From the NCBI GenBank assembly GCA_964594755.1, contig CAZQMO010000001.1, positions 68,838 through 132,837 of the forward strand: 64,000 nucleotides of DNA, written 5' to 3'. The notes below the pieces were generated by a model. The model was given only the letters and a program-made list of their open reading frames with translations, searched no databases and was not told the DNA's origin. The stretch comes from an uncultured Candidatus Saccharibacteria bacterium (GTDB lineage Bacteria > Patescibacteriota > Doudnabacteria > UBA920). Positions 25,428 through 58,796 of the stretch are shown one piece after another. The translations under genes and the position numbers were made by a program. How positions within the stretch are numbered: the stretch's first letter is position 1; each line of letters starts with the position of its first letter.

Positions 25428-25760
25428 AAGCTTTAAGCAGGCCGAGCAATCGCCCGCCGCCATGAGCGGCTGGAGGAAAGTCCGGACACTCGAGTTGAAA
25501 GTATCATATGAGCTTTTAACCCTAGTAGCGGGTAACACCCGTCGGGAGTAATCCTAGAGATGCGAACAGTGACGCCTAAGCAGAGATGCAAGGGAATCCT
25601 TCGGGATTAACTTTTGCGGAAACGCAAAAGATGAAACGGCTAAATTCTTACTTGAGTGCAATGCCAAATTTGGTAGGCAGCACGAGCGCCTTGGTAACAA
25701 GTCGCCTAGATAGATGATTGTTTAGAACCAGAATCCGGCTTACGAACCTGCTTGAAGCAA
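25428..25760 (+). ncRNA. rnpB: RNase P RNA, bacterial type A
   Basis: Contains the universal GGAAAGTCCGGAC (P4 5' strand) and AGAATCCGGCTTA (P4 3' strand) motifs. P1 pairs 5' gaagctttaagcagg with 3' cctgcttgaagc. Length is about 333 nt and the region is GC-rich relative to its flanks. Confidence 0.88.
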
Positions 25761-29696: not shown

Positions 29697-29770
29697 TGGC
29701 ACGGGCTGTAGGAATCGAACCTACGCAAGCGGTTTTGGAGACCGCTGTACTACCATTATACGAAGCCCGC
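29697..29770 (-). tRNA. tRNA-Trp (anticodon CCA)
   Basis: Reverse complement GCGGGCTTCGTATAATGGTAGTACAGCGGTCTCCAAAACCGCTTGCGTAGGTTCGATTCCTACAGCCCGTGCCA forms a cloverleaf with anticodon loop CTCCAAA and an encoded CCA. Confidence 0.9.
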
Positions 29771-29833
29771 AAAGCTTACTGCTCCATATTATATCAAACC
29801 CCGCTAATCCGCCGACTGGCAGAGCGGGGTTGA

Positions 29834-29989
29834 TTACTTAGTTTCTTTGTGTGCAGTTTGTTTGCGGCAGTGCTTACAATACTTTTTAATTTCAAGACGA
29901 GCTTGGGTATTCTTCTTGTTCTTTGTAGTATTGTAATTAATATTGCGGCACTCTGTGCATTCAAGCTGTATACGGTGATCTTGTGACAT
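29834..29989 (-). CDS. rpmG: 50S ribosomal protein L33
   Basis: 51 aa [51 protein letters not shown] with the L33 C4 zinc-ribbon signature. Missed by the ORF track because it is under 60 aa. Confidence 0.9.
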
Positions 29990-30136
29990 AATAATTTTTT
30001 ACTAATGGGGCACCCCGCAACACTTGGGCTCGAGCAGAGCGAGAGTTAAGTGTTGTGGGGAAAGGGACAACATCCTGCAAGCTGCAGTGACTTCGACAGC
30101 GTCGGAGGCACGTAAGCCGGAGGGATGATTGGCCCG

Positions 30137-30213
30137 TGGAGCCGGCTGTCGGATTCGAACCGACGACCTACGGTTTACAAAACCGTTGCTCTAACCAGCT
30201 GAGCTAAGCCGGC
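30137..30213 (-). tRNA. tRNA-Thr (anticodon TGT)
   Basis: Reverse complement GCCGGCTTAGCTCAGCTGGTTAGAGCAACGGTTTTGTAAACCGTAGGTCGTCGGTTCGAATCCGACAGCCGGCTCCA with anticodon loop TTTGTAA. Confidence 0.9.
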
Positions 30214-30466
30214 CGAAATTACAGCCAAATATAACTTTCAAAGTTTAACACAAACCCTTGCAAAAGTCCAGTCTCCAGTTTATACTACTAATGCATACAG
30301 CATTTACACAATCCCAACGAGGATATAAGGGGAATCCGATTTTACCACCCTATAAAAACAGGGTGAGTCGGCCCATTATTATAAAAGAAAGCACGAAATA
30401 TGGCTTTTTTTATTTGCTTATTGACCACCACTTTGATACCTTAATTTAGCTAAAGTAGGAGGAAAT

Positions 30467-30964
30467 ATGACAGAACACCGCGAAGACACTGTAGGATCAT
30501 CTATTAAAAAATATCTAGGGCTGGCTACCATTCGACGATCCACTGACAAAGAACGCAACGATACCAAGCTCCACAATGAGAAAGCTGAACCCAACGTTCC
30601 GCGTATCTCCGTTCCGCTAATCGGAATAGAATATTTCTGCCGTTGGTGCCAAAAGATGACCTTGGCAACACTATACGACCCGTGGTCATACAACGCTCAT
30701 GCAAATTGCACCCATTGCTATGCACGAGCAGATTTCATGCCGAACGGCATAAACTACGGCCTAAGTCTTGCGCAATTATGTATCCTCGCCGAAGCTGCCA
30801 GAAAAAGGCATTCAAACTGGCTGAGGATAAAAGCGGCCATGCTGAGTTACGCCCTCTTTGGCATACCAGCAGATCTAATTCCGGCAGATCGTGAAGGCAT
30901 GACTCTCGGCGAAGTTGAAACAAGATATTTCTTCGCTCTTTCACATTTCATCATGTCAGAATAA
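30467..30964 (+). CDS. Hypothetical zinc-ribbon protein (165 aa; CRWC...CTHC), orphan gene inside the tRNA cluster
   Basis: Perfect RBS AGGAGG 6 nt before the ATG. Two CxxC pairs and a local GC about 47-48%, above the flanking sequence. An intrinsic terminator follows. Confidence 0.6.
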   Translation: MTEHREDTVGSSIKKYLGLATIRRSTDKERNDTKLHNEKAEPNVPRISVPLIGIEYFCRWCQKMTLATLYDPWSYNAHANCTHCYARADFMPNGINYGLSLAQLCILAEAARKRHSNWLRIKAAMLSYALFGIPADLIPADREGMTLGEVETRYFFALSHFIMSE

Positions 30965-30969
30965 CGACA

Positions 30970-31000
30970 TCAGCACTCCAACGGGAGTGCTTTTTTCTCA
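30970..31000 (+). terminator. Rho-independent terminator (agcactcc-aacg-ggagtgct TTTTTT)
   Basis: 8-bp stem plus a T-run directly after the 30964 stop. A second perfect 13-bp palindrome (aaaatgacatctc-gtct-gagatgtcatttt) follows at 31014-31044. Confidence 0.75.
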
Positions 31001-31045
31001 TCCGCTTCAAACATAAAATGACATCTCGTCTGAGATGTCATTTTA

Positions 31046-31131
31046 TGGTGGGCCGAGCAGGATTCGAACCTGCGAAGGCGAAAGCCAGCAGATTTACAGT
31101 CTGCCCTCGTTGACCGCTTGAGTATCGACCC
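31046..31131 (-). tRNA. tRNA-Tyr (anticodon GTA), long variable arm
   Basis: Reverse complement GGGTCGATACTCAAGCGGTCAACGAGGGCAGACTGTAAATCTGCTGGCTTTCGCCTTCGCAGGTTCGAATCCTGCTCGGCCCACCA. Confidence 0.88.
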
Positions 31132-31132
31132 G

Positions 31133-31208
31133 TGGAGCCGTTGTGCGGGATTGAACCGCAGACCTTCTCCTTACCATGGAGATGCTCTACCAACTGAGCT
31201 ACAACGGC
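31133..31208 (-). tRNA. tRNA-Thr (anticodon GGT)
   Basis: Reverse complement GCCGTTGTAGCTCAGTTGGTAGAGCATCTCCATGGTAAGGAGAAGGTCTGCGGTTCAATCCCGCACAACGGCTCCA. It is 1 nt from tRNA-Tyr. Confidence 0.88.
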
Positions 31209-40185: not shown

Positions 40186-43100
40186 ATGGCTTTTACCCAC
40201 CTTCATTGTCATTCCCATTATTCCTTACTCGACGGTCTGTCTAAAGTCCCAGATTTAGTGACATTAGCGAAACAATACGGCATGGACTCTTTAGCTATTA
40301 CTGACCACGGCGTAATGTATGGGGCCATAGATTTTTACAACACCTGCGTTAAAAACGAGGTTAAACCAATAATCGGGCTCGAAGCTTACATCGCACCCCG
40401 AGGACTGCATCGCAAAGAAGGTAAGCAAGACGCTGATTACCACCACCTCACCTTGTTGGCTAAGAACTATGAGGGCTATTTGAACTTGATGAAATTAACC
40501 ACGATTGCTCACACCGAAGGTTTTTACTATAAACCGCGTCTTGATTTGCAAACCATTACTCAATTCCACGAAGGGCTAATTGCTTTATCAGGCTGTCCGC
40601 GTGGCCAGGTACCACGAGCCATTAAAACTTCCATGACTGCTGCAGAGCGAGTACTCGAAGAGCATCTGCAAATTTTTGGAGTAGATAATTTCTTTTTGGA
40701 ACTGCAGCGCAATAGTCTAGATGGCGAAGAATTACAACCAAATGAACAACTCGTTGAGCTGGGTAAAAAAATGGGTGTACGTCCTGTTGCCACTCAAGAC
40801 TGTCACTACTTAAGACCTGAAGATAGTGAAGCCCAAGATGTAATGGTTTGTGTTGGTACTGGTCGCACGGTCGATGAGCCCAACCGTTTAGATATGCGCA
40901 GTCATGACCTGTCATTATCTAAACCGGAAGACATGGTAAATAAATTCTTAGATTTACCAGAGGCTATTGAAAGTACTCAGATTATTGCTCGTGCTGTTAA
41001 TCTAGATATTCCTACTAATCAACGTTATTTCGCACACGTTAAACTGCCAGAGCGAGTTACTCCAGAGCAAGAACTGACAAGAATAGTAAACATCCGAGCA
41101 AGCGAAGTTTATGGACAAGATGGGATTACTAATACAATCCGTGAACGAATTGATTACGAACTAGATATCATCTGTCAAAAAGGTTTTGCTGTGTACTTCT
41201 TAATGGTGGCTGATATTGTGGCAGGGGCTCACGAGCTGGGCGTACTTACTAATACTCGAGGAAGTGCAGCTGGTTCAATAGTTGGTTACTTACTCAAGAT
41301 CAGTGCGATTGACCCGCTTGAATACCAGCTACCGTTCGAACGTTTTTTAACTGTGTTTCGCCCAACCCCTCCAGATATTGATTTAGATATTGCTGATGAC
41401 CGTCGCGATGAAGTAATCAGTTGGATTGCTGATCAATATGGTCATGACAAAGTGGCACAAATCATAACCTTTGGGACGATGAAAGCTCGTGCTGTTGTCA
41501 GAGATGTAGGTAGAGCTTTAGGTGTACCTTATGGTAAATGCGATCGGATTGCCAAAATGATTCCCTTGGGAAAACAAGGATTCACCATGACTCTAGACAA
41601 AGCCATGGATCAGAACATCGAATTAAAAACTATTTACGATACTGACGATGAAACTAAACGCATTATTGATATTGCCAAAAAGTTGGAAGGTTGTGTTCGT
41701 CATGCTTCCATCCATGCTGCTGCGCTAGCCATTACCCCAACCCCGCTAACTGATTACACTCCGCTTCAACTTGAACCTGATGGAAACAGGTTGATTACCC
41801 AATACGACATGTACGCACTTGATGTCGGTGCAGATGGAAATGCTATAGGTGTAATTAAGATGGACTTGCTAGGAATTCGCAATCTTAGCATTTTGGAAGC
41901 AGCCATTAAATTGGTAAAAATTCGTCACGACATTCAAATTGACGTCAGTAGCCTACCACTTGATGATCAGAAAACATTTAAACTAGTCGCGGAAGGCCAT
42001 ACCTTTGGAGTTTTTCAATTGGGGAGTAGCGGGATGACCCGTTATCTCAAAGAACTAAAGCCTACTTCAATTTTTGATATTTCTGCCATGATTGCGTTGT
42101 ACCGCCCGGGTCCAATGGGAATTATCCCTCAGTATATTGCTCGCAAACACAATCCATCTTTGATTAGTTACTTCGACGAACGAATGAAGGATTATCTAGA
42201 ACGCTCATTGGGACTATTGGTTTATCAAGATGATGTCTTATTAACTGCAATCAATCTGGCTGGTTATACTTGGGAAGAAGCCGATAAACTCCGCAAAGCT
42301 ATGGGAAAAAAGATCCCCGCAGAAATGGCCAAGCAAAAAGTTAAATTTATTGATGGTTGTATAAAGGGTGGGATGAGTAATGAAAAGGCTGCGGAGCTGT
42401 TCACGTTAATCGAACCATTCGCAGCTTATGGTTTCAACAAAGCGCATGCAGCTTCCTATAGTCAAGTCAGCTATCAAACTGCTTACATGAAAGCTAACTA
42501 TACAGTTGAGTTTATGGCTGCCTTAATGAGCGCAGAAAGTGGTGATGAAATAAAGATTCATGAAGCCTTTGAGGAATGTAAAAACCTGGGCATTACAGTG
42601 CTACCACCAGATGTTACAGAGAGCTACGGTGGATTCACGGTCATCGACGATACTACCATCAGATTTGGCCTGAGAGCAATTAAGAATTTAGGTTCAGATG
42701 TTATCCGAAAAATAATTGACTGTCATAAAGCAGGAATTACATTTGCATCCCTGGAGGACTTTTTAACAAAAAGTTACACTAAAAGCTTTAATAAAAAATC
42801 TTGGGAAGCTTTAGTGAAATCCGGTGCGTTAGATAAATTCGGTGAACGAGGACAATTACTTGCCAGTACCGAAAATGTTTTAGACTTTCTTCGCGAGCAT
42901 TTCAAAAATGACCAATCCGGTCAAACTTCCCTGTTCGGAACAACTATGCAGATTGGTCGACTGCAGCTCAAAGAAACCGCGCCGTTAACTCAAGATGACT
43001 TGCTCAAGTTCGAAAAAGAACATATTGGATTATTTGTTTCCGGGCACCCTTTAGATAAATTTCACATTGTTACCCAAAATTATTTAGCAATTCGGGATCT

Positions 43101-43638
43101 CACCGAAGATATGGATGGCAGGCAAATCACGATTGCGGGCATTATTACAAAAGCTAAGCGCACTATCACCAAAAAGAACGATCCGATGGCCTTCGCCACA
43201 ATTGAAGATAAGACTGGTTCAGTCGAAATCTTAATATTCCCAACAGTAATGCCGCAAGCTATCCCCTATCTTGACAGTGATATGGTTATCAAAGTAACTG
43301 GAAGGATTTCCTCGAAAGATGGTGAACCAAAAATCATTGTTAATGACATTAAAGACCTCCCCAATGATGAGCTGTATCAGATGGCAGTAGATGAATTAGA
43401 AAAACAAAAAGAATTAACCATTCACCTCCCAGACATCAAGAACCAAACCACTCTTCACCAAATCAAAAAGCTGCTTGAAGCAAATCCTGGGAGTGCCCCT
43501 GTATTCTTACAAGTTGGTAGCGGTCAAGAGACTAACACCATTAAGACCAAAACCAGTGTACGCATCAGTCGCGACCTGATTCAAAAACTACGGGCAATAC
43601 CAGAAGTAAGTATGATCTATGACCGGATGGACTTTTAG
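40186..43638 (+). CDS. dnaE: DNA polymerase III alpha subunit DnaE
   Basis: 1150 aa with an N-terminal PHP domain (HLHCHSHYSLLDG), a palm with catalytic Asp motifs and a C-terminal OB fold. Confidence 0.96.
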   Translation: MAFTHLHCHSHYSLLDGLSKVPDLVTLAKQYGMDSLAITDHGVMYGAIDFYNTCVKNEVKPIIGLEAYIAPRGLHRKEGKQDADYHHLTLLAKNYEGYLNLMKLTTIAHTEGFYYKPRLDLQTITQFHEGLIALSGCPRGQVPRAIKTSMTAAERVLEEHLQIFGVDNFFLELQRNSLDGEELQPNEQLVELGKKMGVRPVATQDCHYLRPEDSEAQDVMVCVGTGRTVDEPNRLDMRSHDLSLSKPEDMVNKFLDLPEAIESTQIIARAVNLDIPTNQRYFAHVKLPERVTPEQELTRIVNIRASEVYGQDGITNTIRERIDYELDIICQKGFAVYFLMVADIVAGAHELGVLTNTRGSAAGSIVGYLLKISAIDPLEYQLPFERFLTVFRPTPPDIDLDIADDRRDEVISWIADQYGHDKVAQIITFGTMKARAVVRDVGRALGVPYGKCDRIAKMIPLGKQGFTMTLDKAMDQNIELKTIYDTDDETKRIIDIAKKLEGCVRHASIHAAALAITPTPLTDYTPLQLEPDGNRLITQYDMYALDVGADGNAIGVIKMDLLGIRNLSILEAAIKLVKIRHDIQIDVSSLPLDDQKTFKLVAEGHTFGVFQLGSSGMTRYLKELKPTSIFDISAMIALYRPGPMGIIPQYIARKHNPSLISYFDERMKDYLERSLGLLVYQDDVLLTAINLAGYTWEEADKLRKAMGKKIPAEMAKQKVKFIDGCIKGGMSNEKAAELFTLIEPFAAYGFNKAHAASYSQVSYQTAYMKANYTVEFMAALMSAESGDEIKIHEAFEECKNLGITVLPPDVTESYGGFTVIDDTTIRFGLRAIKNLGSDVIRKIIDCHKAGITFASLEDFLTKSYTKSFNKKSWEALVKSGALDKFGERGQLLASTENVLDFLREHFKNDQSGQTSLFGTTMQIGRLQLKETAPLTQDDLLKFEKEHIGLFVSGHPLDKFHIVTQNYLAIRDLTEDMDGRQITIAGIITKAKRTITKKNDPMAFATIEDKTGSVEILIFPTVMPQAIPYLDSDMVIKVTGRISSKDGEPKIIVNDIKDLPNDELYQMAVDELEKQKELTIHLPDIKNQTTLHQIKKLLEANPGSAPVFLQVGSGQETNTIKTKTSVRISRDLIQKLRAIPEVSMIYDRMDF

Positions 43639-43750
43639 ACTTGACATATCAATGCATAAATCATAAAATAATCACGCTTACTTAACTCTGCTCACCCTGC
43701 GCGGATTTAGGTAGTCAAAGGATGCTCCTCAAAGAGTGTCATCTCCAGTA

Positions 43751-43781
43751 GCGAGCAGTTTCCGAACTGCTCGCCTTTTTT
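43751..43781 (+). terminator. Rho-independent terminator after dnaE
   Basis: gcgagcag-tttccgaa-ctgctcgc followed by TTTTTT. Confidence 0.8.
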
Positions 43782-43798
43782 AACTGTTTATAACTTGA

Positions 43799-43827
43799 TT
43801 GACACATAACAAACAGAATTTTATAAT
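43799..43827 (+). promoter_or_regulatory. Perfect consensus sigma-70 promoter (TTGACA -17- TATAAT) in dnaE-thrS spacer
   Basis: ttgaca at 43799-804, spacer cataacaaacagaattt (17 nt), tataat at 43822-27. Confidence 0.7.
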
Positions 43828-43833
43828 AAAAAT

Positions 43834-43996
43834 GTATTAATAATCCGATCAACACCTACAGTTTGAACCAATCTTTCAGATAAATCCTAAGGAGGGTTTA
43901 CCTAGGCCCAACTGCCGATCCTGCACCGAACATTTATCTGAATGGTACTGTCCGTCTTCTACCTCCACTTGCCCTATTTATTAGGGCTTTTTTTTT
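43834..43996 (+). ncRNA. Candidate small RNA / leader unit 1 (about 160 nt, promoter-to-terminator)
   Basis: Bounded by the consensus promoter above and the terminator gcccta-tttatt-agggc plus T9 at 43971-43996. It contains no convincing ORF. It carries aaggaggg and cctcc segments and a TGGTAC segment faintly reminiscent of a T-box core. Confidence 0.35.
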
Positions 43997-44015
43997 ATGT
44001 TTTTTTCTGTATAAT

Positions 44016-44170
44016 ATAAATAGTTCTGTTAGCGCTGACCCGACTACCAACCGGCGAGCTAACTCAAGTTGAATACCTAAAAGGCTGCCAAAACTGTGGC
44101 AGTGAACTGGGACGGAATCGTCTTAAATTTAAGACCCCAGAAGTTAGTTTTTAAAAATTACTAACTTCTG
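44016..44170 (+). ncRNA. Candidate small RNA / leader unit 2 (about 150 nt)
   Basis: It begins after a TG-TATAAT -10 element (44008-44015). It ends at the strong terminator cccagaagttagt-ttttaaaaat-actaacttctggg plus TTTTT (44125-44170). It contains a ctgccaaaactgtggcag hairpin and an ACC-containing loop. Confidence 0.3.
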
Positions 44171-44320
44171 GGTTTTTCTTTACTCGCGAATTATTCCATA
44201 ACCCGCTACCGCTGATAGTAATCCAAACAATGAGAGTGATAACTACGGCAGGTTCTAATTTCAGGCTCCTCCCAATAACATCGCGCAGTCTATATAAGAA
44301 CCAAAGCATCTCAATTTTAC

Positions 44321-44368
44321 TCACACAACCATCGCTAAACCTGCAAAAATTACTTTCAATTTATTCAT
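44321..44368 (-). CDS. Micro-ORF (15 aa, MNKLKVIFAGLAMVV) with perfect SD, divergent from thrS
   Basis: AAGGAGG 4 nt upstream of the ATG on the - strand. Hydrophobic peptide of unknown significance. Confidence 0.2.
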   Translation of the reverse strand: MNKLKVIFAGLAMVV

Positions 44369-44399
44369 ACAACCTCCTTTTAATATTAATCCGTTAACT

Positions 44400-46130
44400 A
44401 TGCACCATTTAGAAAACCAACGTCACTCTCTTGCTCACTTGCTCGCTGCCAGTGTCTTAGAAATGTTTCCTGACGCGAAATTAGGAATCGGTCCAGTAAT
44501 CGAGAACGGTTTTTACTACGACTTCTTACTTCCTCGCCCTCTCACCCCTGAAGATCTCCCAAAACTAGAAGCTCGCATGAAAGAATTATCTAAGCAACAC
44601 TTAGCATTTGAACGCCAAGATATTTCTGCTGTTGATGCTAAAAAATTCTTTGAAGATCGAAAGCAAGACTTTAAACTAGAGTTGATTGAGGAGTTGGAAA
44701 AGACAGGAGAACCATTAAGTCTTTACAAGACAGGTGAATTTATCGATCTTTGCCGCGGAGGTCATGTAGAGAATACATCTGAAATCAACCCAGATGGATT
44801 TAAGCTTCATAAAATCTCAGGGGCTTACTGGCGCGGTGATCAAACCAACGCACAATTACAACGAATCTACGGCTTAGCTTTTGAAGACCAAAAGCAATTG
44901 GATGATTATTTAACTTTACAAGAAGAGTTGGAAAAACGTGATCATCGCACGCTCGGACCACAACTTGGTTATTTCTTATTTCATGAATACGCCCCAGGCA
45001 TTCCCTTTTATCAACCAGCAGGAACGATTGTCCGTAATCAGCTCGAAAAGTTCGTTCGGGAAGTTTCTTATGGTAAAGGTTACAGCGAAATCCGATTACC
45101 TCAATTATTTGATTCGGAACTATTTAAAACTTCTGGGCACTGGGATCACTACAAAGACGATCTGTTTACACTGGAATCAGAAGGTCGCACCTTTGGATTA
45201 AAACCAATGAACTGCCCGGGCCATATGCTGTTATACAAACAAAGTCTTTATTCCTATAAAGACTTGCCGCTTCGCTTCGCAGAAATGACCACGCTCTACC
45301 GCAACGAGCTATCTGGTACGCTTTCTGGATTAACCCGCGTGCGCGCCTTTGCTCAAGATGATACTCATATTTTTGTTACCCCAGAACAAATCACCAATGA
45401 AGTTGCTGACTTGCTCGCTAGAGTGACAAGCATTTACGGAATCTTTGATATGAAAATTGATCAAGTCACGATTGGAACCAAGCCAACAGAGTCGCTTGGT
45501 ACAAAACAGGAATGGGAGCACGCTGAAGCAGCCTTAGCAGCAGCTTTAGATAAGGCAGGCTGGGAATATACCCGCGAAGAAGGTGATGGCGCGTTTTACG
45601 GTCCCAAAATTGATATGCGCATCAAAGATGTGTTTGGCCGAGACTGGCAATTAGCAACTATTCAGTTAGACTTCCAAATGCCACAACGCTTTAAGCTCGA
45701 GTATGTGGCCAGCGACGGTTCCCGACAAACTCCAATCGTAATTCATCGCGCTATCTTAGGTAGCTTTGAACGGTTCATGGCTATCTTAATCGAACAATAT
45801 GGTGGCGCACTACCAGTGTGGCTGTCCCCAGTTCAAGCTGTAGTTTTGCCTATCTCAGATAAACATAGTGAGTACGCAAAGCAAGTCGCTGATGAATTAA
45901 TAAAAGCAATTCCTGATTTGCGTATCGAAATTGATGACCGCAGTGAATCGGTTGGTAAACGGATTCGTGAAGTGGCAACTAAAAAAGTTCCTTACACGTT
46001 AGTTGTTGGAGATAAAGAAGCTGCTGACCAGACTATTGCGGTTAGAGGTCGAGGTGATCAGGATCTTGGCACCATCACCATCGGTGAATTTGCCCAAACC
46101 TTGATTGATAAAATTAATACTCGTAAGTAA
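44400..46130 (+). CDS. thrS: Threonyl-tRNA synthetase (lacks N-terminal TGS domain; starts at editing domain)
   Basis: Begins with the RHSLAHLLAASV editing-domain zinc motif. Class II motifs 1-3 and a C-terminal anticodon-binding domain are present. 576 aa. No SD; the upstream sequence is CCTCC. Confidence 0.92.
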   Translation: MHHLENQRHSLAHLLAASVLEMFPDAKLGIGPVIENGFYYDFLLPRPLTPEDLPKLEARMKELSKQHLAFERQDISAVDAKKFFEDRKQDFKLELIEELEKTGEPLSLYKTGEFIDLCRGGHVENTSEINPDGFKLHKISGAYWRGDQTNAQLQRIYGLAFEDQKQLDDYLTLQEELEKRDHRTLGPQLGYFLFHEYAPGIPFYQPAGTIVRNQLEKFVREVSYGKGYSEIRLPQLFDSELFKTSGHWDHYKDDLFTLESEGRTFGLKPMNCPGHMLLYKQSLYSYKDLPLRFAEMTTLYRNELSGTLSGLTRVRAFAQDDTHIFVTPEQITNEVADLLARVTSIYGIFDMKIDQVTIGTKPTESLGTKQEWEHAEAALAAALDKAGWEYTREEGDGAFYGPKIDMRIKDVFGRDWQLATIQLDFQMPQRFKLEYVASDGSRQTPIVIHRAILGSFERFMAILIEQYGGALPVWLSPVQAVVLPISDKHSEYAKQVADELIKAIPDLRIEIDDRSESVGKRIREVATKKVPYTLVVGDKEAADQTIAVRGRGDQDLGTITIGEFAQTLIDKINTRK

Positions 46131-57925: not shown

Positions 57926-57954
57926 TTGACAAACGTGACAATAAATGGTAATAT
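57926..57954 (+). promoter_or_regulatory. Consensus sigma-70 promoter (TTGACA -17- TAATAT) at the start of GC-rich non-coding island
   Basis: ttgaca at 57926-31, spacer aacgtgacaataaatgg (17 nt), taatat at 57949-54. Confidence 0.65.
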
Positions 57955-57960
57955 ATTTTT

Positions 57961-58547
57961 ACGAATTCGTTATGGATAGCTGGTGGCTTTGCCGCCTGAT
58001 ATAGATCCTGTCTGATTCAAAGACGGGCCGCAAAGCCCATCCTAACGATAATACGCCAAGACTTGTTGGTCGATGGCGTCGCGGAGTTCGCGGAGCAACA
58101 AGCAGTGCCCCCCGATTCGCGATTCGTAAATACCCTTTTCAGAAATGACTAGGGTGAAAATGGGCGACTAATAATCGTTCATATAGGAGGGTGGGTCCCT
58201 AGGGCTCACCCATCTAAAGACACTTCACAGGAGGACTTTTGGAATGAAACACCGTATTCATGGTCCGCCGGCAACGACACAGAGACAGGGAATGTAAAAA
58301 AAAGATCGTCGACCGGCTCGACCGAAGCCTAATCGGCTTCGGCGCCAAAATAGTGCGACAATCACGTCGCACAAAGGAGAGATCATCATGTACCCATCAC
58401 CCAACTAGCCGCCCCGGCGGCGAAATAATGATCAAAAAACTGATCGGCGGGGCGAGCAATCGCCCCTTAGCAATCATACTTGTTTCCTCCAAGTAGCGAC
58501 CCGGAGTCGCACCCGAGAGCAGTCTAAAAAACTGCTCTCTTTTCTTT
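57961..58547 (+). ncRNA. Candidate large structured ncRNA A (about 590 nt, GC-rich, many GNRA-capped hairpins); identity unknown
   Basis: Runs from the promoter above to the terminator gagagcag-tctaaaaaa-ctgctctc plus TTTTCTTTT (58515-58547). Local GC is far above genome background. All six frames are broken, with only Arg-rich ORFs typical of GC-rich non-coding sequence. Confidence 0.4.
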
Positions 58548-58575
58548 TGACATAAATCTGCAATATTGCTAATAT
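58547..58575 (+). promoter_or_regulatory. Second consensus promoter (TTGACA -17- TAATAT) inside island
   Basis: ttgaca at 58547-52, spacer taaatctgcaatattgc (17 nt), taatat at 58570-75. It overlaps the T-run of the preceding terminator. Confidence 0.6.
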
Positions 58576-58581
58576 GGCAAG

Positions 58582-58796
58582 TAATATTAGAACTTTGAGG
58601 GGGATTAAAATCAAGCGGCCGCAAAAACAACGGCGCACATCGTTATTTGCCGCTAACGTTAGTGCCCTGGTGACACCGCTTGAAGAGGTGCAGGACGGGA
58701 TCATAACCCAATCCCTGTATCTCGATAGGTAGCCACCGATGTGTCTGCCGCCCGAAGCCGCAACTCTTCTCCATCAGGGGTTGCGGCTTTTTTCTT
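58582..58796 (+). ncRNA. Candidate structured ncRNA B (about 215 nt); weak resemblance to SRP-RNA helix-8 motif, unverified
   Basis: Runs from the promoter above to the terminator aagccgcaac-(16 nt)-gttgcggctt plus TTTTCTTTT (58755-58796). It contains ccctggtgacaccgcttgaagaggtgcaggacggg, loosely similar to the SRP RNA CAGG-GNRA-AGCAGC core. Confidence 0.35.

Follow-up and report, generated by a model that had tools for sequence, protein, structure and literature searches.

The dnaE-thrS spacer

In a genome of the Patescibacteria (the Candidate Phyla Radiation, CPR) the genes dnaE (40186-43638, with its TAG stop at 43638) and thrS (44400-46130) lie 761 nt apart on the + strand, and this work is about an RNA element, unit 2 (44008-44177), encoded in the spacer between them. 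Positions are those of the window, by which we mean the whole 64-kb stretch of DNA that was analyzed. The product of thrS, threonyl-tRNA synthetase (ThrRS), has 576 amino acids and the Pfam domains tRNA_SAD, tRNA-synt_2b and HGTP_anticodon. Its nearest named relatives carry the label Candidatus Doudnabacteria. It is a short form of the enzyme, which begins with the editing (tRNA_SAD) domain, the N-terminal TGS domain being missing. thrS would be the gene that unit 2 controls.

The spacer consists of three promoter/terminator units. An earlier note, made by reading the sequence, had described two of them, units 1 and 2, and both are present; it missed a third, unit 0, whose promoter TTGACA-17-TAAAAT (43641-43669) comes after the dnaE stop but ahead of the first terminator. 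The rest of its description was accurate. The terminator after dnaE (a stem at 43751-43774 and then a T-run), the perfect consensus promoter TTGACA-17-TATAAT, the terminator GCCCTA/TAGGGC plus T9 (43971-43996), the TG-TATAAT -10 element and the very strong second terminator (a 13-bp stem at 44136-44172, then T5) are all there. The last stretch before thrS, which it put at about 230 nt, measures 222 nt from the terminator to the ATG at 44400, and as the note said no recognizable Shine-Dalgarno (SD) sequence precedes that ATG.

The number of such sites is not a strong argument. There are 4 promoter-like sites in the spacer where shuffled sequence gives 2.3 +/- 1.5, and 3 terminator-like sites against 0.7 +/- 0.9, so the counts alone exceed chance only modestly. 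Unit 2 is not a chance feature because it is conserved and covarying in relatives, and it appears to be the only conserved functional element among the spacer units.

Structure of unit 2

The promoter of unit 2 is an extended -10 element, TGTATAAT (44008-44015), which an alignment with relatives supports. A -10 of the TATAAT type is kept there at a similar short distance 5' of the first helix, P1, and in most of them it has the TG before it. The RNA itself is about 117 nt long plus the terminator. It starts with a truncated Stem I (44028-44063), found with RNAalifold, whose layout matches the K-turn of the Rfam T-box consensus. At its base is P1 (44028-33 paired with 44058-63; 5 of 6 pairs covary). 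Above that is a K-turn-like loop, GCU-GA-C (44034-39) opposite C-GA (44055-57), seen with RNAalifold and in the layout of the Rfam consensus, and then the 4-bp helix P1a (44040-43 paired with 44051-54), in which 3 of 4 pairs covary. P1a is capped by a 7-nt apical loop, CUACCAA (44044-50), which is the ACC-containing loop that the earlier note had seen in this unit.

After Stem I the window has an unpaired, A-rich linker of roughly 15-20 nt. It leads to what would be the 5' part of a T-box discriminator (44079-44106): AAAAG, an instance of the RRRxG motif (PMC7583486), a variable Stem III (44084-44103) in which all 7 pairs covary, and GAA. The antiterminator follows at 44107-44140. Its outer helix A1 pairs CUGGG (44107-11) with CCCAG (44136-40), a one-sided bulge of 8 nt, ACGGAAUC, occupies 44112-19, and the inner helix A2 takes up 44120-35; over 14 loci 4 of 5 pairs covary in A1 and 6 of 6 in A2. 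The unit closes with an intrinsic terminator (44136-44177) of a 13-bp stem, an 11-nt loop and U5, and the 5' arm of this terminator reuses CCCAG, the 3' strand of A1.

The two structures come from two separate predictions. RNAalifold applied to MAFFT alignments gives P1, the internal loop, P1a with its 7-nt loop, the variable hairpin and the terminator. With the terminator excluded the arrangement of A1, bulge and A2 appears and uses the terminator's CCCAG. The earlier note had proposed to look by folding for an antiterminator that competes with the terminator, and such mutually exclusive helices exist in unit 2. The alternative register, in which UGGG(AC) would be the T-box bulge, was ruled out since its A1 strand GAAC has no conserved downstream partner.

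The minimum free energy structure of the nascent RNA up to 44140 is the antiterminator form, at -30.9 kcal/mol. The terminator hairpin is worth -20.2 kcal/mol against -9.9 kcal/mol for the antiterminator, and the full-length RNA prefers the terminator. Since the terminator is far more stable, termination would be the default, and a ligand would have to stabilize A1.

There is some variation on this plan among the loci. L059, L089 and L093 have one additional hairpin in the leader. A motif, UUCUAGAG, is common to the leaders of L089, L091 and L093, where it forms the loop of the extra hairpin in L089 and L093 and the loop of Stem III in L091. It may be a module for tertiary contacts. The window leader does not have it.

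Conservation among relatives

Comparison with the regions upstream of orthologous thrS genes, which the earlier note had suggested, bears out unit 2: the RNA is found upstream of thrS and on the same strand in 14 of 14 independent Patescibacteria loci. Nine loci with the dnaE-thrS arrangement were found by way of ThrRS homologs (62-93% identity), and unit 2 is recognizable in all nine. A covariance model, R1, was built from seven unit 2 sequences and finds exactly one copy in the window. Run over 80 thrS loci from across the bacteria it gives one credible match (E = 0.003), which lies upstream of thrS in a member of the Moraniibacteria (L059); in three weaker matches (E 0.5-2.2) the fold is absent. 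L059 and the Firmicutes controls used below come from a ThrRS scan of a genome collection that was dominated by universally conserved ThrRS peptides and returned relatives of only 45-52% identity. A metagenome scan with a DNA pattern for the conserved core was blind to thrS, and each of the three loci that it returned lies before a thrS gene, though three loci are too few to sample other specificities.

Compensatory changes occur in 25 of the 28 base pairs and 95.5% of cells are paired in a 14-sequence alignment, which was fitted to the structure model and so favors structure; alignments based on MAFFT gave the same helices. This level of covariation was reached by 0 of 500 shuffles, and shifting the pair partners collapses the signal. 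In L093 (1780-2496) the leader precedes an ORF (open reading frame) of 238 amino acids without a Pfam match, and thrS starts 4 nt after it. The leader there probably controls a two-gene operon.

A threonine codon in the apical loop

The ACC of the loop (44046-44048) is a threonine codon with an A after it, and the anticodon of tRNA-Thr(GGU) is complementary to this codon. All 14 loci have ACC-A without change, whereas the position just 5' of ACC can be U, A or C. The window itself encodes tRNA-Thr(GGU) at 31133-31208, and U73-CCA is the end of both tRNA-Thr genes of the window, with the CCA encoded. The U73 fits the A in the GGA of the bulge. These genes belong to a tRNA cluster (29697-31208) of Trp-CCA, Thr-UGU, Tyr-GUA and Thr-GGU.

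Unit 2 as a probable divergent T-box

We compared unit 2 with the T-box traits set out in a review (PMC7583486) and with the consensus that Rfam displays for a thrS T-box of the Firmicutes. Several of the traits are present. It is a same-strand 5' leader of an aminoacyl-tRNA synthetase gene in 14 of 14 loci, counting L093 with its intervening ORF. A specifier codon matches the regulated gene and is followed by a purine, again in all 14. Most loci have the K-turn sequence pattern P1 / 3 nt / GA / N ... N / GA / P1, whose layout equals the Rfam consensus CgaUGAa...ugGAGc; the 3' side deviates in L082 (CA) and L089 (UA). AAAAG-Stem III-GAA corresponds to the flanks RRRxG-Stem III-AA, and the order A1, one-sided bulge, A2 is mutually exclusive with the terminator. 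On the same scaffold the canonical bulge UGGAACC is found in L094, whose ThrRS is 62% identical, and in L059. The family is therefore tied to T-boxes.

We believe with good confidence that unit 2 is the 5' leader of thrS, a miniaturized and divergent T-box homolog, most likely acting by transcription attenuation. It probably senses uncharged threonine tRNA. The earlier note had offered a divergent T-box leader as one possibility for both units, and this was right for unit 2 and wrong for unit 1.

The switch would work in the following way. Transcription would start a few bases past TGTATAAT, and the nascent K-turn hairpin would present the ACC of its CUACCAA loop to the anticodon of tRNA-Thr(GGU). 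AAAAG-Stem III-GAA together with A1, the bulge and A2 would form the discriminator. If the tRNA is uncharged, its 3' end U73-C74-C75-A76 would pair with the GGA of the bulge, which would stabilize A1 and block the terminator. RNA polymerase would then continue for about 220 nt, crossing a decayed small ORF in the antisense direction, and enter thrS. Otherwise CCCAG would be taken by the more stable 13-bp terminator and a transcript of about 155 nt would be released. The structures named here come from the alignment, while the binding of tRNA, the sensing of its charging and the read-through into thrS are what we infer from them.

Read-through is nevertheless the best explanation for thrS expression. 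No promoter-like site is found on the + strand between the leader terminator and thrS in the window, and where a small ORF occupies the opposite strand it begins just 25-60 nt away from the ATG of thrS. Terminator and thrS are about 20-40 nt apart in L087 and L089 and about 65-155 nt apart in L082, L091 and L094; the gap is 200-310 nt where an ORF of 65-79 amino acids on the minus strand intervenes. In L091 (4430-4480, minus strand of the locus) a hairpin, GACCCUCC...GGAGGGU, follows the leader terminator and would sequester the SD of thrS. It may be a second, translational layer of control.

Points against a T-box

A number of observations weigh against this interpretation. In the window and 11 relatives (12 loci) the bulge is the 8-nt ACGGAANC and not the 7-nt UGGNACC, so that no UGGN-ACC adjoins A1 in any of the twelve. 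Only GGA of this bulge can pair, with U73-C74-C75. In the window clade AC replaces the U of UGGN that pairs with A76, and this U, next to A1, is described as invariant (PMC7583486). The first pair of A2 in that clade is G-C and not the G-U 'steric sensor'.

The rest of the RNA is reduced as well. The long Stem I, along with its S-turn, AG bulge and distal loop, is absent, and in its place are 6 bp, the K-turn, 4 bp and the 7-nt loop. The leader has no Stem II S-turn and no Stem IIA/B pseudoknot. The earlier note stated that there is no clean T-box core, which is correct. The scan with T-box and other Rfam models that it recommended gave no support for a T-box: RF00230 has no match in the window at the gathering threshold or even at E<=10, and none at gathering in the relatives, while as a positive control it scores 104-107 bits on the Firmicutes thrS T-boxes L004, L038 and L072. 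Over the spacer Rfam 15 gives nothing at gathering thresholds. The weak matches at E<=10 (mmgR, traJ_5, STnc150) were rejected since they are driven by terminators or CU-tracts. Two further points concern the genomic setting. All members found precede thrS and carry ACC, with no other specificity among them, and a minus-strand ORF lies between terminator and thrS in 6 relatives and in decayed form in the window, which is unusual for a leader.

Judged by its sequence and predicted fold, then, unit 2 is homologous to T-boxes yet falls short of a strict definition by UGGN, a long Stem I or Stem II and the Rfam score. Transcriptional T-boxes generally depend on a long Stem I, on the elbow platform and on Stem II to capture tRNA fast, and a short Stem I is associated with translational T-boxes that keep Stem II (PMC7583486). 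A short Stem I with no Stem II and a predicted transcriptional mode is outside the described archetypes.

How much should be made of this? It is possible, though we hold it only tentatively, that the window clade is an undescribed class of T-box. It would be the smallest natural scaffold for sensing tRNA, made of a K-turn, a 4-bp stem, an anticodon-like loop, Stem III and an antiterminator, which has given up the U-A76 pair and the G-U steric sensor and reads the tRNA 3' end, or its charging, differently from characterized T-boxes. One possibility for the variant bulge is that three GGA:UCC pairs form and A76 stacks on the additional A and C. The variant leader may also only count tRNA-Thr, with charging not sensed.

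Alternative explanations

The best of the alternatives makes unit 2 a small RNA that acts in trans, independently of the thrS gene beside it, and its terminator a constitutive 3' end. Unit 2 does have a promoter of its own and a terminator of great stability, the synteny of related genomes could be what holds it beside thrS, and an opposite-strand small ORF stands between the two in L081, L085, L086, L088, L090 and L092, with the decayed copy in the window. We consider this improbable, however. All 14 loci have unit 2 in one orientation and position with respect to thrS, even where ThrRS identity is as low as 52-62%, and the linkage persists while the sequence in between is replaced, lost or gained; in L087 and L089 unit 2 directly adjoins thrS. 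The conserved alternative helix that competes with the terminator and the motifs specific to T-boxes argue against it too.

It could also be argued that unit 2 is an operator bound by ThrRS, as in the autoregulation of E. coli, or a sensor of a small molecule rather than of tRNA. This would suit its location upstream of thrS and the hairpin, which resembles an anticodon arm with its 7-nt loop in a pyrimidine-U...A-A frame. The bulge lacks the canonical UGGN, so pairing with a tRNA 3' end is not assured. ThrRS recognizes G35 and U36 (as known for the E. coli enzyme and operator), whereas the invariant triplet in the loop is the codon ACC and not the Thr anticodon NGU, and this also goes against the operator mimic that the earlier note had raised. 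Unit 2 does not overlap the ribosome-binding site of thrS, and the UGGAACC of its homologs L094 and L059 marks the scaffold as a reader of the tRNA 3' end. We find either version of this idea highly improbable.

That units 1 and 2 form a tandem riboregulatory array controlling thrS, which was the leading idea of the earlier note, is hardly credible: both are promoter/terminator units on the thrS strand, and tandem T-boxes are known in Firmicutes, but unit 1 has no similarity to unit 2, to R1 (one copy in the window) or to T-boxes, a separate promoter follows its terminator, it is missing in L082/L084 and L092-L094 and elsewhere amounts to a loose GGAGG...CCUCC-terminator pattern, and by eye it is only about 65-70% identical even to the relative with 93% ThrRS identity.

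Units 0 and 1

If the other two units are not part of the leader, they are best described on their own. Unit 0 (43641-43780, + strand) lies directly after dnaE, is lineage-specific and is not T-box-like. Its promoter-like site has 11 of 12 matches, and TTGACA boxes stand at the equivalent place in L086, L087 and L088. The intrinsic terminator (43751-43780, a 10-bp stem and T-run) would end dnaE transcripts and any unit-0 transcripts of about 105 nt, and the fold of 43676-43782 has z = -4.3.

Unit 1 begins with the perfect sigma-70 consensus promoter (43799-43827, + strand; 12 of 12 matches), one of 7 TTGACA-N16-18-TAnnnT sites in the window. Downstream of it is a lineage-specific candidate small RNA of about 160 nt (43835-43996), whose terminator (43971-43987 plus U9) is preceded by an unpaired CU-rich tract with CCUCC (43960-43968). 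It does not qualify as a small RNA of the mmgR/suhB type: RF00519 scores 26.3 bits against a gathering threshold of 41, and the match covers only the CU-rich tract and the terminator. The TGGTAC segment to which the earlier note drew attention is present at 43943-43948, but it is not kept even in the relative with 93% ThrRS identity. A second T-box in unit 1 is ruled out by this and by the missing R1 match.

BLAST of units 0 and 1 among nine relatives returned only T-runs and promoter bits, and their folds have no common structure. The counterpart of unit 1 in L085, L087 and L090 is just the loose GGAGG...CCUCC-terminator pattern. Units 0 and 1 appear to be separate, fast-evolving candidate small RNAs with no conserved part in the control of thrS. 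In L086 (3400-3610) and L087 (3441-3812) a dnaE-proximal TTGACA promoter is followed by 190-330 nt that look highly structured, before the T-box promoter. This stretch has pseudoknot-like CACCCUUGG.../...CCAAGG segments and no Rfam match. We considered transfer-messenger RNA (tmRNA) for it and rejected this, as ARAGORN finds none.

The minus-strand ORF

The earlier note had also pointed to a 15-amino-acid micro-ORF on the opposite strand with a perfect AAGGAGG SD. The sequence is there, the SD followed by MNKLKVIFAGLAMVV and a stop (44368 down to 44321), but it is the frameshifted start of a longer ORF and not a free-standing gene. Three-frame translation outlines a decayed gene for a small membrane protein at 44151-44384 on the - strand, with the SD at 44373-77 and the ATG at 44368. 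The window copy runs for 15 amino acids to a TGA and continues in another frame with the C-terminal 57 codons (44324-44151), which can be aligned, though weakly, to the C-terminal half of the ORFs that are intact in relatives. We therefore regard it as a frameshifted copy, which is either a pseudogene or the product of an error in assembly. Intact ORFs of 65-79 amino acids occupy the equivalent place in L081 (255-452), L085 (3751-3966), L086 (3767-3976), L088 (1323-1535), L090 (10798-11013) and L092 (2200-2439). Recoding of the TGA was rejected: two of the four in-frame stops are TAG, TAG is also the stop of dnaE, and under code 11 neither dnaE nor thrS is interrupted.

The small proteins probably have two transmembrane segments, are encoded divergently from thrS and have no Pfam match on record. 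The 3' ends of their ORFs overlap the leader terminator on the opposite strand, and the C-terminal N/K/T-P residues arise because this part is the reverse complement of the CUGGGG arm. Transcripts of thrS that result from read-through would be antisense to these ORFs.

Other loci in the window

T-box-like leaders were sought at other aminoacyl-tRNA synthetase genes of the window and rejected. The gene cysS has no leader, and the unit before aspS has no R1 match and no GAC loop of this type. That unit (58547-58795) has a TTGACA-17-TAATAT promoter, about 210 nt and a strong terminator just before aspS, without an R1 or Rfam match, and is a candidate aspS leader. The true start of aspS is likely the downstream ATG of the internal 'MERILTSE'. 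Ahead of it, at 57926-58547, another TTGACA-17-TAATAT promoter precedes about 580 nt of sequence that is rich in GC, poor in ORFs and closed by an intrinsic terminator. The sole match there, to cyano_tmRNA at 58292-58465, is sub-threshold (18.6 bits, E=0.009), and ARAGORN detects no tmRNA. The sequence could encode a tmRNA of divergent type or some other large noncoding RNA. A compact class-A RNase P RNA of 325 nt (120 bits) lies at 25434-25758.

Significance

T-boxes are regarded as mainly a Gram-positive device. Their presence in the reduced genomes of the CPR would extend the range of the mechanism, and annotation based on Rfam misses such leaders. Full-text searches of one literature collection found no paper on T-boxes in Patescibacteria or the CPR, which is no proof of novelty. 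A natural transcriptional T-box without elbow platform and Stem II would contradict the working rule that a long Stem I is needed. The leader would define a minimal core for sensing tRNA, useful for structural work and for engineering switches that respond to tRNA, and its ACGGAANC bulge would offer a naturally occurring test of the model in which charging is sensed through A76 pairing and a steric sensor. CPR bacteria are thought to be host-dependent for amino acids, and the leader suggests that they monitor their own threonine supply.

Comparison with known systems

The E. coli thrS operator regulates the same gene and also has a hairpin shaped like an anticodon arm. It mimics the anticodon, however, and acts at the ribosome-binding site, whereas the loop CUACCAA of the leader shows a codon, lies 350 nt from the thrS ATG and is coupled to the terminator that follows it.

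The canonical transcriptional T-box (RF00230; for example thrS and tyrS of Bacillus and Clostridia) and the leader both stand 5' of an aminoacyl-tRNA synthetase gene, with a K-turn at the base of Stem I, a specifier codon ending in C and followed by a purine, and purine-rich flanks around a variable Stem III. In both, A1, bulge and A2 compete with an intrinsic terminator, and the bulge A opposite position 73 matches the U73 of the host tRNA-Thr. The run of codon plus A, 3' helix strand and K-turn GA is as in 'GAAA-ACC-A-CCUCU-GA-GC' of the Firmicutes T-box L072. The differences are also clear. The canonical RNA has about 220 nt in the Rfam consensus model against about 117 nt plus terminator here. 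Stem I of the leader ends at the specifier, in a 7-nt apical loop like that of an anticodon, and there is no S-turn, AG bulge, distal loop (elbow platform), Stem II or IIA/B pseudoknot. In the bulge ACGGAANC takes the place of UGGNACC, A2 is closed by G-C and not G-U, and RF00230 does not detect it.

The translational T-boxes of actinobacterial ileS genes (Sherwood et al. 2015; M. tuberculosis, N. farcinica; summarized in PMC7583486) have an 'ultrashort' Stem I that likewise carries the specifier in an apical loop above the K-turn without an elbow platform. Unlike the leader they keep UGGN, and they have also retained Stem II (S-turn) and the IIA/B pseudoknot, both required for binding of the tRNA (PMC7583486). 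They act on translation by sequestering the SD, whereas the leader has an A-rich linker and an intrinsic terminator. The translational set of the TBDB was derived from Actinobacteria only. The glyQS T-boxes are naturally without Stem II, have a short single-stranded linker between Stem I and Stem III and are transcriptional, as the leader appears to be. Their Stem I is long and complete, elbow platform included, and they depend on strong GGC/GCC pairing, whereas the leader would combine a minimal Stem I with the codon ACC.

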